Source: a virus (lineage: Duplodnaviria; Heunggongvirae; Uroviricota; Caudoviricetes). Taken from it: 15,775 nucleotides of DNA. The DNA lies in IMG/VR virus record IMGVR_UViG_2703718860_000028, positions 1 to 15,775 of that record; one strand, given 5' to 3'. Every line of letters starts with the position of its first letter. Positions within the stretch are counted from its first letter, which is position 1. A program made the position numbers. Below, piece after piece: positions 3,001 to 9,000 of the stretch.

Positions 3001-6000
3001 AGGAAGTAGCCCGTGGGATAGTTTCCCCGATGAAATGGCCAGAAAAGCCATTGTTAAGCGCGCCAGCAAATACTGGCCCCGTCGCGATCGCCTGGATACA
3101 GCTATCGACTACCTGAACACTCAGGCCGGTGAAGGTATCATCCTGAATGCTGATCACATCCCTGAGCGTGACGTCACTCCCGCATCAGATGAGATTATCA
3201 ATGAGATCACTCAGGCAATGACCGAAATTAACAAGACATGGGATGATCTGCTTCCCATATGTTCCAAAACATTCCGTCGCATGATTGCATCACATGAATA
3301 TCTCAGTCAGGAAGAAGCTGTCAAAACGCTTGATTTTGTCAAAAAGAAAGCTGCCAGAAACAAGGCCACGGCGGAAGCGAAAATTCACGCCACCACGGAA
3401 AATAACAGCGAGGCCGTGTCATGACACCAGAAATTATTCTCCAGCGAACTGGCGTGGATATTACCAGCCTCGACCAGGGCGATGATGGATGGCACAAGCT
3501 GAGACTCGGTGTTATCACTGCTTCAGAAGTTCACAATGTGATAGCAAAGCCACGTTCCGGCAGCAAATGGCCTGATACAAAAATGTCATACTTCCACACC
3601 CTGCTGGCTGAAGTTTGTACTGGCGTGGCACCGGAAGTTAACGCTAAGTCGCTCGCATGGGGAAAGCAATATGAAGATGATGCCCGTGCCCTCTTTGAAT
3701 TTATCGCGGATGTTACCGTCTCGGAAACACCCATAATTTTTCGTGACGAAAGCATGCGCACCGCCTGCTCTCCCGATGGTTTATGCAGCGATGGTAACGG
3801 TCTTGAGCTTAAATGCCCTTTTACTTCCCGCGACTTCATGAAATTCCGGCTTGGCGGCTTTGACGCTATCAAGCCTGCTTACATGGCCCAGGTGCAATTC
3901 AGCATGTGGGTTACAGACAAGGACGCCTGGTACTTCGCCAACTACGACCCACGCATGAAGCGTGAAGGCCTGCATTATGTCGTGGTCGAACGGGATGAAA
4001 AGTACATGGCGAGTTTTGATGAGATGGTGCCGGAGTTTATCGACAAAATGGACGAAGCACTGGCGGAAATTGGTTTTGTATTTGGAGAACAATGGGGGGT
4101 TAATAACTAATGGATGAAGTGATTTTTACTTATAACGAAGAATCAGCACTGACCGCCGGACAAGGTGGTTTTATTACCGAAACGGGTGCGCATATCATTA
4201 ACATCACCGAAGCAGAACTCAAGCAATCAGAAAAAGGTGCCCGATTCATTGAGTTTTCTGGAGAATCCGACGACGGACGGAAAATCCAGTATCTCAGTGT
4301 TTGTGTTCAGAAGAATGACGGCACTGAAAATAAATTTGGGGCGAGCATTATTCACGCCATGATGGGATGCACAGGAATTGGGCAGTTAACGCAGCATATG
4401 GTTTCCGTCAGTAAATATGTTGCACCTGAGTTTCACGGAAAGAAAATCGGACTCGTCCTCCAGAAAGTATTAACCACAAACAGAAAGACTGGCGCAGACG
4501 GTTACCAGATGGAAATCCGCATTCCATTCATTGCAGAAACAGGGCAGACACTGAAAGAAAAAGCTGAAGGAAAGAAACCAGAAACGGTAGCAAATATGGT
4601 TTCCACTCTCAAAGACAAAGACAATCGCAGAAAAAACGTAAACCCGAATCACACGGACGACCCAGGTTACTGGCAGTACGGCAGCGATAGTTTTTAATTC
4701 ACAAACAAAACCAGGCTTTAAATGCAGTGAACAACTGAAGCCTTAACACACCTCTACACGGAGATATTAATATGAACCAGCATCAAACTGATGTTAATGT
4801 TTTCATTAACGACCTCGACGGCGGGGTATTTGTTAACAAACTTGGTGCGGTATTAAGTGAAGTTGCCTTTGGCGTAAACAGCACAAACAAAAAAGGAAAG
4901 GTATGTGTTGAATTCGAATTATCTTCACTTGATGAAAATCGCGTATCAGTTTCCCATAAACTAAAATTCACACGCCCGACAATGCGTGGTAGTAAATCAG
5001 AAGAAGACACAACTAACACCCCGATGTTTGTAAATAAAGGTGGTGAGCTTACTTTGTTCCAGAAAGACCAGGGACAGCTTTTCGATAAACAGGGTCAACA
5101 TGACGCTGTTTTACGCTGAATAATCCCCGCCTTAAAACGCTCGCGCATTATCCCTAAATCCATAAATTAAAGGTAAATATACATGTCTCAGTTAGATAGC
5201 AATGCCATTAAAGAAATTGTAAAACTCACCACTACTGCTTTTTCTGGTGAAAATTTGCCGCTTACGGAATGCCCTGTTGCGTTATTGCCGGACAATGTAA
5301 ATATCGAAAGTCTGGAACGATTCATGACAGAACGTTTTCGTTTCCGTGGAGTCATGACCACAACCAGTATTGATGACTTTGTTGAATACAGCAAAGGGTA
5401 TGCCGATGAGTGCTCCCGCTGCTTCATTAACGCGGAAACGATGAAAGCAGTCACTGTGTTCAATATCGGCACTCTGGAGCAACCTGGACACGCTGACAAC
5501 AAGGCACTGCTGGAACTGAAAGCCACATCACCATATCGCGCATTACGTGACGTGGACGGCAAAAGACAACTCCAGAAATCTCTCGCTGAATGGCTGGAAG
5601 ACTGGGCCGACTTCCTCACAGCCTATGACAGCGACGGTAATGTGCTGGATATCAAACAGGCTATCTCTGCTATCCGTCGTCTTACCATCGACGCAAAACG
5701 CAGTGCTGAATATGAAGAGCAAAACTTCAGCGGTAGCCGCTCAGTCATGGAGTCCGTGGAGGCTAAAAGCAAAGAAATCATGCCTGCCACTTTCCGCTTT
5801 GAATGCATCCCATACGAGGGCCTGGGCAACAGGGAATTCACGCTGCGATTAAGCATTCTGACAAGCGAACAGCCTGTTCTGGTGCTACGTATCGTGCGTG
5901 TTGAAGCTGCGGAAGAAGAAATTGCCAAAGAGTTCCGTGACCTGCTGAAAGAGCGTTTCGAAGAAGAAGATATCTTAACCTTCATCGGCACGTTCTCAGT

Positions 6001-9000
6001 GTGATGAAATCTGTGACAGGGACGTCACGACATATCGCTCATATTTCACGAGAAAATACACAGTTCTTGGAGGGTATACTATGCAATTTAAAGATTTACC
6101 AGCGGATATTCAGAAAATAGCTGCGGATACGCTTAAAGCCCATTTATCGGTGCTTGATTTAACAAAGGAACCAAAGGCGAATCTGGAAAATATATCCCGT
6201 AACGTGCGAGATGTTTTTGTCGGGCTGTATGCTTATGGCAATGAAAAGCACGAGGAACATATTCAAAATGGTTGCATTAATAAATTTCAACAAAATATCA
6301 AACTTCCTGTTGCTGATAAAACAGAGCAGAAAACAGAGGTATTAGTATTCTGGAATACCGTTGAGGCTATCGCCAGGAGCACGATGTTGGAGTTTAACAA
6401 CATCAATCATTCAGGGATCGACACTCATCAATCATCACATCGTGAGGGGTTTTCCATTCTTCTAACTCTGTTACAAGAGCAAGGCGAATATCCTCAGCCG
6501 ACATCAAACGACACTGAGCAATAGTCCATTCTCGTACGCTGCAACGTGAGGTCGTACCCCGGACACGGGTAAACATCCGGCAATTCCAGCTTACCACCTA
6601 TTTAACCCCCTCCCCGTAACGAGACGAAGAAATGAGCACTCATCATGTTGTGAGTTTTTCAGGCGGTCGGACATCGGCGTACCTCGTCCACCTTATGGAG
6701 CAACGCAGAAAAGCTGGTGAAAACGTTCATTACATACTCATGGATACGGGATGTGAACACCCGCTGACGTACCGATTTATTCGGGAGGTTGTGAAGTTCT
6801 GGGATATTCCGCTAACCGTGTTGCAGGTCGATATAAATCCAGAGCTTGGGCAGCCAAATGGTTATACGGAATGGGAACCAAAGGATATTCAGACGCGAAT
6901 GCCGGTGCTTAAACCGTTTATGGACATGGTAAAAAAATATGGCACGCCATACATCGGCGGCGCGTTCTGCACTGACAGATTAAAACTCACCCCCTTCACA
7001 AAATACTGCGATGACCATTTCGGACAAGGGAACTACATCACGTGGCTGGGTATTCGTGCAGACGAACCCCGTAGGCTGAAACCGAAACCGGGCATCCGGT
7101 ATCTTGCCGAGCTGTCAGATTTTGATAAGTCGGATGTTATCCGGTGGTGGCGAAAACAACCTTTTGATTTGCAAATCCCGGAGCACCTCGGGAACTGTGT
7201 TTTCTGCATCAAAAAGTCAACGCAAAAGCTGGGGCTTGCATGTAAAGACGAACCTGGTCTGATGCGGGTTTTTAATGAACTGGTTACAGGCAAACACGTC
7301 AGGGATGGTCATCGCAGAACAGGTAAAGACGTTATGTACCGTGGCCACCTGACGCTTGACGGGATTGCCAGAATGTATGCCGACAGCGACTACAGAAATT
7401 TGTATCAGGCGATGGTGCAGGCCAAGCGATTCGATACCGGCTCGTGTTCAGAGTCATGTGAAATCTGGGGTGACCAATTGGAGTTGAAATTCGAAGAGGT
7501 AGTGGCATGACAATCGTAAAAACCCATACCGGCATTGTGATCACCAAAGACGGCCCGCAGGTAAAAAAACTTCACCAGACAGAGCGGATGTGGGTCGTCG
7601 GCAAAAACGAGTTTTACCACAAAGAAACCGGACGCCGCCACTTTGCAGAAAATACGCGCCGCAGACTGCTGATCGACACAATCAAGCCTGTCGAGGTGAA
7701 GCATGTTTAAACAGAACGAAAAATCTATCGCTCAAATTGCTGAGTATATCCCGCGTACGTGCCGGGGTATGCAGTTGCAGGAAGCCAAAGCGCGCCTGGA
7801 GAAAAAAATTGCGCTCTATATCGATGACGGCTGTGATGCTGCCGTTCTTAACGCGGCTTTCGCACCAGCTCTTAACTGTCATACGCGGGAATCTTTTTTT
7901 TCGTGCATCGCAGCGCAGCTCCACAAAGGAGGCAACCAGTGAGCAAGATTGACTATCAGGAACTGCGTGAAAAGGCAGAGAAAGCAACTAAAGGAAGCTA
8001 CATCGTAGGGCATACATCTGTTAACCAACACGGCAATTTAACAGGAGTTTTTGTTTGCCAAAAATGGAAAGGAGAACCCGGTGGCGTGATTGCAGAATGT
8101 CATGTTAACTGCCTGGTTGAAACAGATGCTCAGGCTTACGCAAACGCTGAATTTATTGCTGCCTTTAATCCAAATGTTGCGCTGGCACTGCTGGATGAAC
8201 GGGAAAGAAACCAGCAATACATCAAACGCCGCGACCAGGAGAACGAGGAAATTGCTCTTACGGTTGGGAAGCTGCGCGTTGAGCTGGAAGGCAAAGACAA
8301 GCTGATTGCAGAGCTTGGAAAACAATGCGCCGAATGGGAGCGAAAAGCATTAAGCGACTTTGAAGAGTGTGCTGCGATGGCTGAACGTATCGAAGAGTTG
8401 CAGACAAAATCTGCACCAGATTCGTTTGGCATCATCGGTGAAAATATTCGAACACAGGATAATCGAATAACGTCAGACCCTATGTTTTGTGTGTATCAAA
8501 AGCGCGAAATCGTTGTTGATGCTGATTATGACTATGACCGGATTGTCTGGGTTGATGAAGATGGCAATGAAGCCAATAAACGCCAAAGTCGTCGTCTCGA
8601 ACTACTTCACGAAAACTTTCGAGAGCCACCAGAAAAATGGCGGCGCGTTGCTGTGAAAGATATTGATGAATTCGTTACCTGCTGTTTCACCGAACAGGGT
8701 TGTAAAGACTACCTGGCAGCCAATGGTCACAATCTTCGCTTGCCATTTATATATGTAAAAAGCGGTTTCAGGAACGCTGAATATATCGGCATAAGAAACT
8801 GGCTTGCTGGCATTCGCATCAAAGGAGAGTGAGATGACCACTATGAACAGAGAAGAACAAAAGCAAGTTCTCATAGATACAGCTAATCACGTAATCAATC
8901 GTGATAATACTTCACCATATAGCGAAAATCTTAGGGAACTGGCACGAATTGCACTGGCATCACTGGCAGCAGTATCGGATGAACGAGCAGCCTATGAATT

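Follow-up and report, generated by a model that had tools for sequence, protein, structure and literature searches.

Do the four genes that follow the exonuclease gene exo in a Shiga toxin (Stx)-type prophage form one functional unit, or do they belong to several? The question is raised by positions 1–15,775 of the IMG/VR virus record IMGVR_UViG_2703718860_000028 (15,775 nucleotides, hereafter the window), which represent the early-left (pL) arm of a lambdoid prophage of Escherichia coli. An initial annotation, made from the sequence, had described four open reading frames (ORFs) of 195, 115, 273, and 147 amino acids at 4110–6524, right after exo, as a single block of conserved-looking genes with good ribosome-binding sites and no assigned function, and had named them as a reasonable place to look for defense or anti-defense activity. 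These coordinates were exactly reproduced. We consider it probable, however, that the block consists of three things standing side by side: a single-stranded DNA-binding protein (SSB) gene coupled to exo (ORF1), a YfdP–YfdQ pair (ORF2 and ORF3), and a mosaic gene replacing YfdR (ORF4). This composite architecture is deduced from the homology between ORF1 and HkaK of phage HK620, from the overlap of ORF1 with exo as against the gaps of 63–76 nucleotides in front of the other genes, from the gene context in phages HK620 and HK629, and from co-occurrence counts. The genes concerned and their neighbors are as follows.

2176–2457, + strand: GamL-type inhibitor of host nucleases, which opens the recombination module (RefSeq name 'host nuclease inhibitor GamL' in a 99.9%-identical prophage)
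2474–3424, + strand: RecT-family single-strand annealing protein (Pfam RecT, E-value 1.2e-23; phrog_148, 2e-94; start taken from RefSeq)
3421–4110, + strand: YqaJ/lambda-Exo-family exonuclease, exo (Pfam YqaJ, 2.5e-28; phrog_149; RefSeq 'lambda exonuclease family protein')
4110–4697, + strand: ORF1, predicted phage SSB of the HK620 HkaK or 'DUF669' type, 195 amino acids (HkaK homology; phrog_743)
4772–5119, + strand: ORF2, YfdP homolog, 115 amino acids (K-12 YfdP homology; phrog_204, 1e-44)
5183–6004, + strand: ORF3, YfdQ homolog (DUF2303), 273 amino acids (Pfam PF10065; K-12 YfdQ homology)
6081–6524, + strand: ORF4, two-module accessory ORF, 147 amino acids (phrog_1363, a family of unknown function, 2e-63)
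6632–7510, + strand: NinC homolog (PAPS-reductase-like), outside the four-gene block (80% identity to lambda NinC; Pfam PAPS_reduct, 2e-8; phrog_424)
7903–8832: Ea22-family gene, downstream of the block
8804–9553: protein with a DUF551 (YfdS-type) domain, downstream of the block

Bases 4000–6600 of the window are 99.9% identical to the Stx1a prophage at wrbA in strain STEC2018-553, in which the order is Rha, two small ORFs, GamL, RecT, the lambda-exonuclease-family protein, the equivalents of ORF1–4, a PAPS-reductase-domain protein, Ea22, DUF551 and, further on, the integrase. The equivalents of ORF1–4 are annotated there as three 'hypothetical proteins' and one 'YfdQ family protein'. The block is found, whole or in part, in 253 of 5,426 complete E. 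coli genomes. ORF1–4 are real genes rather than chance ORFs. The good ribosome-binding sites reported initially were recovered, each ATG being preceded at 7–10 nucleotides by a Shine–Dalgarno-like element (GGGGG, GGAG, AAGG, and GGAGG for ORF1–4, respectively). The ratio of nonsynonymous to synonymous substitutions (dN/dS) is about 0.09–0.19 for ORF1–3 against divergent homologs, and 0.46 and 0.86 for ORF4 against its nearest variants; the description of the genes as conserved thus holds strongly for the first three, and only narrowly for the fourth. Long antisense ORFs are present inside ORF3, but they are best read as by-products of the conserved sense frame. In the block and its intergenic gaps we found no Rfam family, no tRNA and, in the gaps, no terminator-like site on the + strand. 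None of the four proteins matched NCBIfam, and none matched a family of PADLOC-DB v2 at an E-value of 0.01 or below, so that a defense role received no support.

That the four genes make up a single accessory cassette, co-adapted for one function, as the initial annotation implied, appears very improbable. The genes are contiguous, co-oriented and each endowed with a ribosome-binding site, and they occur together at 95% identity or more in many Stx phages and in 126 E. coli genomes. However, this joint occurrence is confined to one lineage of closely related phages: at divergent loci only YfdP and YfdQ remain together, HK620 and HK629 carry the SSB gene beside Sak4 and abc2 but lack YfdPQ, and ORF4 is swapped for YfdR or other genes elsewhere. 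Moreover, ORF1 is coupled to exo, whereas the other three genes are set off by the gaps mentioned above. The co-occurrence data thus largely refute the single-cassette reading. The position of the block, between exo and the Ea22-family gene (7903–8832), which we take to be that of the lambda exo–xis 'ea' region, is as initially described. The lambda genes of this region (ea22, ea8.5, orf60a/61/63/73) share this position and early-left transcription with the four ORFs, but no sequence relationship; a passage of one report presents the genes of the exo–xis region as small modulators of the lysis–lysogeny decision (PMC10834534).

ORF1 and the recombination module

ORF1 is 86% identical to HkaK of HK620 over amino acids 1–189 (E-value 8e-128) and matches phrog_743, 'single strand DNA binding protein', with an E-value of 1e-68; NCBI names its homologs 'DUF669 domain-containing protein'. 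By this homology, ORF1 is a predicted HK620-type phage SSB and the fourth gene of a GamL–RecT–Exo–SSB recombination module. The absence of an assigned function, asserted initially for all four genes, therefore stands for YfdP, YfdQ, and ORF4 but not for ORF1, for which there is confident homology to a characterized phage protein, a finding that the initial annotation had itself named as contrary to its proposal. The HK620 protein is a bona fide SSB, which strongly stimulates the phage annealase Sak4 in vivo and in vitro, and this stimulation depends on the last six C-terminal residues (Hutinet et al., PMC5928155). More generally, DUF669 and N4-type SSBs have been inferred to be highly diverged OB-fold SSBs with acidic tails (Kazlauskas et al., PMC4889955).

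HkaK (NP_112044, formerly 'Abc1') resembles ORF1 in its length of 195 amino acids, in its membership of phrog_743, in its acidic tail ending with a phenylalanine, and in the location of its gene directly after, and overlapping, the last recombination gene. In the window, exo overlaps the stop of RecT by four nucleotides and the ATG of ORF1 overlaps the stop codon of exo (TAATG), while ORF2, ORF3, and ORF4 are each preceded by a spacer of 63–76 nucleotides. ORF1 also evolves under strong constraint (dN/dS 0.09–0.18). The two systems differ in their annealase partner, which is RecT with a YqaJ-type Exo for ORF1 and Sak4 for HkaK, in the next gene, which is yfdP after ORF1 and abc2 after the SSB of HK620 and HK629, where yfdPQ is lacking, and in the last six residues of the SSB, YGSDSF in ORF1 and NDYPPF in HkaK.

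The acidic tail of ORF1 (...DDPGYWQYGSDSF) ends with a phenylalanine, as do all tabulated tails of the family except one, which ends with a tyrosine; some read DFDDDIPF. Matches to ORF1 among phage SSBs fall into two classes: full-length matches with at least 95% identity, adjacent to Exo, and matches of about 86% identity restricted to amino acids 1–189, adjacent to Sak4 or an ATPase in every annotated example. When positions 4680–4697 of the window are compared with positions 4481–4498 of HK620, the last six residues are seen to be replaced behind an SSB core conserved at 86%. The SSB tail and the annealase partner may thus co-vary between RecT/Exo-linked and Sak4-linked lineages, and the different last residues of ORF1 would fit a different partner, RecT in place of Sak4. 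By analogy with HK620, ORF1, translationally coupled to exo, would coat the single-stranded DNA exposed by Exo, and its tail might recruit or stimulate RecT.

Several searches call for caution in the SSB assignment. The Pfam DUF669 model (PF05037) does not match ORF1 even at an E-value of 10, and it grazes just three of 24 members of the ORF1 family, with a best E-value of 0.019. Searching the PDB with a profile of the SSB family gave nothing significant, and the OB fold is not demonstrable from sequence; marginal PDB matches to eS28, obtained with the single sequence, vanished once the profile was used. The assignment is based on the close homology to the characterized HkaK. On this basis, the annotation of ORF1 should read phage SSB, part of a four-gene GamL–RecT–Exo–SSB module. 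This reading is useful for the design of recombineering systems, since the annealase of HK620 was made far more active by its cognate SSB. For the first gene of the module (2176–2457), the GamL-type inhibitor, the Pfam scan returned no match.

The YfdP–YfdQ pair

The initial annotation had likened ORF2 and ORF3 to YfdP and YfdQ by size and order only. The likeness is confirmed, but it extends well beyond size and order: ORF2 is 57% identical to YfdP of E. coli K-12 (E-value 1e-48) and ORF3 is 53% identical to K-12 YfdQ (8e-110), which identifies the two proteins by sequence as true homologs. ORF3 matches Pfam DUF2303 (PF10065) over residues 27–271 of 273 with an E-value of 1.6e-65 and 221.5 bits, for a cut-off of 26.6. 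Homologs of YfdP carry the newer Pfam tag PF27127, which for ORF2 comes from the precomputed tag of an identical protein (P0241); a weak match of ORF2 to ChlamPMP_M (20.8 bits, below the cut-off of 25) was taken as noise.

We examined the linkage of the two genes with profile hidden Markov models run on six-frame ORFs around YfdQ or YfdP loci. In the window, 63 nucleotides separate yfdP from yfdQ. A YfdP homolog of 115–125 amino acids (34–50% identity) lies directly upstream of YfdQ in the phages ST64B (Salmonella), VvAW1 (Vibrio), Usme (Xylella), and PG1 (Pseudomonas). Of the 162 phage and IMG/VR loci, 159 have YfdP immediately before YfdQ on one and the same strand; the remaining three are contigs that start at YfdQ. 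YfdP is also upstream in all 80 chromosomal loci, which represent a variety of genera, among them Pseudomonas, Marinobacter, Hahella, Alcanivorax, Proteus, Xenorhabdus, Erwinia, and Mixta. YfdP is therefore adjacent in 239 of the 239 testable loci retrieved via YfdQ; a separate co-occurrence count found it in 82 of 84. Reciprocally, among 80 loci retrieved via YfdP, YfdQ is directly downstream in all 74 that could be tested, the other six ending within 331 bases of YfdP. YfdP and YfdQ are thus a reciprocally obligate two-gene module, shared by temperate and virulent-type phages of gammaproteobacteria.

The other genes of the block do not follow this rule. SSB and RecT each accompany YfdQ in seven of 84 loci, Exo in eight and ORF4 in six; in the 80 diverse genomes, SSB, RecT, and ORF4 were each found once. 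SSB, RecT, Exo, and ORF4 are associated with YfdQ within one lineage of near-identical Stx phages and not beyond it; outside that lineage only YfdP and YfdQ stay joined, contrary to the initial picture of one four-gene block. The HD-domain 5'-deoxynucleotidase YfdR follows YfdQ more often (69/84 loci, 22/43 after dereplication, and 50/80 genomes). Because the clustering of neighbors picked up spurious antisense ORFs at high-GC loci, only its robust counts were used. The pair always lies in early operons amid recombination and replication genes, including in phages of Vibrio, Xylella/Xanthomonas, and Pseudomonas, and it is often followed by a nucleotidase or phosphoesterase. In Burkholderia phage JC1, a DUF2303 protein is encoded beside RecT and YqaJ and was unexpectedly detected in purified virions (PMC9144972), which would be consistent with a very large particle that sediments along with the phage. 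YfdQ is in essence a phage gene: it was found in 181 phage records, but among 72,556 plasmid records only 22 had it, most of them replicons that are the size of a phage or contain a prophage, so that a plasmid leading-region gene is ruled out.

Comparison with known loci places the window among several variants. It shares with the K-12 element CPS-53, yfdP–yfdQ(–yfdR–yfdS–yfdT), the gene order, a similar spacer and a DUF551 (YfdS-type) protein downstream, but CPS-53 is a decayed remnant without an upstream recombination module, and ORF4 fills in the window the slot that CPS-53 gives to YfdR, an HD nucleotidase and DnaA-binding component. No YfdR homolog was found in the near-identical loci (L010–L017), and no HD domain among the scanned ORFs of the window. 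Lacking yfdR, the window does not have the combination of yfdR with yfdS or yfdT that characterizes the yfdQRST cluster of Noguchi and Katayama. The early-left operons of ST64B (sb37–sb36–sb35) and of the LLS type, designated 'no Rec module' for their lack of a recombination (Rec) module, have the same YfdP–YfdQ pair; they carry YfdR without RecT, Exo, and SSB, the reverse of the window. Phage ArgO145 is like the window in having both the pair and a full Rec module.

At the protein level, purifying selection is strong on both partners (dN/dS 0.09–0.19 for ORF2 and 0.10–0.19 for ORF3). The 218 unique homologs of YfdQ share about 20 near-invariant polar residues, many of them Arg, His, Asp, or Glu, and ORF3 retains RxRxRG, GHxD, EDW, R165, R236, and others that are conserved in at least 94% of these homologs; YfdQ is acidic, with an isoelectric point (pI) of 4.7. 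The AF2 model of ORF2 (pLDDT 85) predicts a helix at residues 8–38, three long strands and a disordered tail bearing a conserved Q-[LM]-F. This motif, more than 90% conserved, does not make the tail a canonical beta-clamp motif, as only 59% of homologs have the first Q of Qxx[LM]F, and a role as a clamp-binding peptide is a weak lead. A YfdP profile gave nothing significant in the PDB, and neither YfdP nor YfdQ had a PADLOC match or a convincing relative in two fold libraries, both of which were compared without the PDB entry 9o7m.

This entry, 'YfdQ Protein', comprises 36 chains with one sequence, which matches ORF3 with an E-value of 7e-44 (about 37% identity) and aligns end to end with the family profile (4.7e-111). 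The sequence is 96–99% identical to a protein of CP2-like podoviruses of Xanthomonas and Xylella, and not to that of E. coli. The source phages are of the virulent type, unlike the lambdoid prophage of the window, but as in the window YfdP is directly upstream of YfdQ. The example chain listed for 9o7m is 'C', and chains A and B may have another identity. A text search for the entry code, YfdQ, YfdP, DUF2303, and the family accessions found no paper for 9o7m; the preprint on the cryo-electron microscopy of PhiXacm4-11, a related phage, was considered as its source, but other codes were deposited with it.

Two further observations concern these families. In Xanthomonas phage MET23-P3 (locus at 6493–7747), the YfdP homolog upstream of YfdQ is misannotated as 'translation elongation factor'. 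A protein of 398 amino acids (P0122) joins a 100%-identical YfdQ (84% query coverage) to an Ea22 domain (PF10065 + PF13935); this fusion is probably a deletion or assembly variant in which ORF4, NinC, and small ORFs have been removed.

Possible roles of YfdP and YfdQ

A cluster of yfdP, yfdQ, and a yfbR-like gene has been reported as common in lambdoid early-left operons and devoid of known function (Casjens and co-workers, PMC12315714). Noguchi and Katayama found that multicopy yfdQ and yfdR, together with yfdS or yfdT, inhibit initiation at oriC; YfdR binds DnaA, YfdP is dispensable for the inhibition, and YfdQ binds neither YfdR nor DnaA tightly, its role being unclear, while the authors themselves warned that the inhibition is possibly an overexpression artifact (PMC4776307). 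A passage of the same paper cites a weak sensitivity of yfdQ deletion mutants to methyl methanesulfonate (MMS) and H2O2, and according to a preprint the production of YfdQ affects how another phage forms plaques, an effect that depends on CPS-53.

We consider it likely that YfdP and YfdQ act as a complex. YfdQ would assemble into a large homo-oligomer, on which YfdP, small and built of a helix and a sheet with a conserved, flexible tail, might dock, or which it might link to a target. More tentatively, and with appreciable doubt, the function that we favor for this complex is in early DNA replication or nucleotide metabolism, where it might damp host initiation at oriC or handle replication or recombination intermediates. 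Such a role is suggested by the early-operon setting, the nearby nucleotidases, the 36 chains of 9o7m, the near-invariant residues and the purifying selection.

Another possibility is a cryptic accessory of recombination or repair, a mediator or a DNA-end handler that would aid or replace Rec modules. The pair adjoins RecT, Exo, or SSB genes in the window, in JC1, and in the CP2-like Xanthomonas phages, in 'no Rec module' phages such as LLS and ST64B it is the principal conserved part of the early-left operon, the MMS sensitivity of yfdQ deletion, though weak, points the same way, and the conserved Arg clusters of YfdQ are compatible with nucleic-acid binding. However, YfdPQ co-occurs with complete four-function Rec modules, it has no similarity to the Rad52, RecT, Erf, Sak4, Gam, or Ku folds, and YfdQ is acidic overall (pI 4.7). 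We regard this role as quite improbable, in line with Casjens and co-workers, who judged a hidden recombination role unlikely because the cluster co-occurs with full Rec modules, for instance in ArgO145 (PMC12315714).

Alternatively, the pair might be an anti-defense module whose assembly sequesters or inhibits a host immune effector, nuclease, or signaling nucleotide early in infection. Its accessory character would be in agreement with this, as it is absent from many lambdoid phages and present with or without a Rec module (PMC12315714). It is also co-expressed in the early-left operon with the host-nuclease inhibitor GamL, a large homo-oligomer of YfdQ (36 chains) could serve as a cage or sponge, and both the HD, DHH, and DEDD phosphoesterases often found nearby and the acidic pI of 4.7 are compatible with such a function. 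Nevertheless, we found no homology or fold likeness to known anti-defense proteins, YfdQ is nearly absent from conjugative plasmids (22/72,556 records), and YfdPQ is strongly conserved over distant hosts (34–57% identity, dN/dS about 0.1–0.2), more so than many host-specific arms-race genes. Overall, an anti-defense function seems rather unlikely.

A more specific version of the YfdP–YfdQ complex can be imagined, in which a giant YfdQ assembly, with 36 protomers as deposited, captures or remodels a host factor together with YfdP. The captured factor could be a component of the replisome or of initiation, with the Q-[LM]-F of YfdP as a docking peptide, or else an immune effector. We hold this version to be unlikely; if true, it would define a new class of machinery for early host takeover or counter-defense, common to temperate and virulent gammaproteobacterial phages and, according to the literature, extending to Burkholderia phages.

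The type of SSB was already known, and the named YfdP and YfdQ families had already been flagged in the literature; what is new is a narrower target, the strictly coupled YfdP–YfdQ pair. This pair is present in hundreds of phages, including Stx-converting ones, and the phenotypes attached to it, replication initiation and DNA-damage tolerance, are indirect. Knowing what it does would close a gap that recurs in lambdoid early-left operons, and a new mechanism of host takeover or counter-defense could come to light.

ORF4 and other features of the window

ORF4 occupies the slot held by YfdR in most relatives of the locus, and its distribution is narrow. The 74 phage records that contain it all come from E. 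coli or Shigella, and when 1.84 billion representatives were scanned exhaustively with HMMER, only 27 clusters emerged, which match either the N-terminal ~50 or the C-terminal ~75 residues separately. In the alignment, a variable linker prone to indels connects two modules, of which the C-terminal one is reused behind unrelated N-termini. Searches of Pfam, NCBIfam, PADLOC, and PDB returned no match. The label 'NinB homolog' given to it in AP012534 was rejected, BLASTP against lambda NinB giving an E-value of 6.6 and the Pfam scan no NinB match at E-values up to 10; the mislabel probably arose because the next gene is a NinC homolog.

These features suggest either a fast-evolving accessory gene or else one close to neutral. 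A decaying or near-neutral ORF without selected function is a possibility that we find doubtful. It would account for the dN/dS values of 0.46 and 0.86 relative to the nearest variants, the indel-prone middle, the shuffled modules, the tiny narrow family and the lack of any domain or structure match. Nevertheless, ORF4 has the strongest Shine–Dalgarno site of the four genes (GGAGG, spacing of seven nucleotides), its frame is kept open at about 147 amino acids in dozens of phages, both modules turn up again in other proteins, as functional units would, and a high dN/dS is typical of arms-race genes as well. ORF4 is a lower-priority candidate, as a fast-evolving accessory gene.

The NinC homolog that follows (6632–7510, +) is located in the early-left operon rather than in the rightward operon with its nin region, and has weak PADLOC matches of the SspD/DndC/BrxP type. 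We know of no function for NinC in lambda.

Three antirepressor-like genes are present on the + strand, one with a Rha N-domain (1–648) and two with ORF6N N-domains (905–1579 and 11980–12657). Over about 100 amino acids at the C-terminus the three are nearly identical (…YPLSWFS…HPY…MPSPTMRILNELHSKGYNVDAAVAEFNAFKHLTEEMRR…), which looks like the result of domain shuffling or recent duplication. Rfam matches above the gathering score (sRNA-Xcc1, isrK, C4 antisense RNA) were obtained at 783–866, 11745–11818, and 11844–11927, all on the + strand and directly upstream of the two ORF6N-domain genes. This arrangement suggests two P1-type C4-RNA/antirepressor immunity cassettes within 15 kb.

The + strand operon is broken by an islet on the minus strand, which comprises a ParD/RHH-antitoxin-like ORF (11398–11838, −), whose Pfam match covers residues 67–112, and a small ORF with a lipoprotein-like N-terminus (11072–11353, −). 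The ParD-like ORF probably starts at an internal methionine, the listed ORF being over-extended into the isrK/C4 region.

At the 3' end of the window, a tyrosine-integrase-like ORF of 389 amino acids (14606–15775, −) runs off the sequence on the strand opposite to the early-left operon. In the best-matching prophage, by contrast, excisionase and integrase are co-oriented with the operon, and the 3' end of the window may therefore belong to a different integration module or to an adjacent element. An ORF at 13975–14361 (+) contains a five-fold VQP tandem peptide repeat (VQPVQPVQPVQPVQ), and its counterpart in the related prophage is annotated DUF1627.

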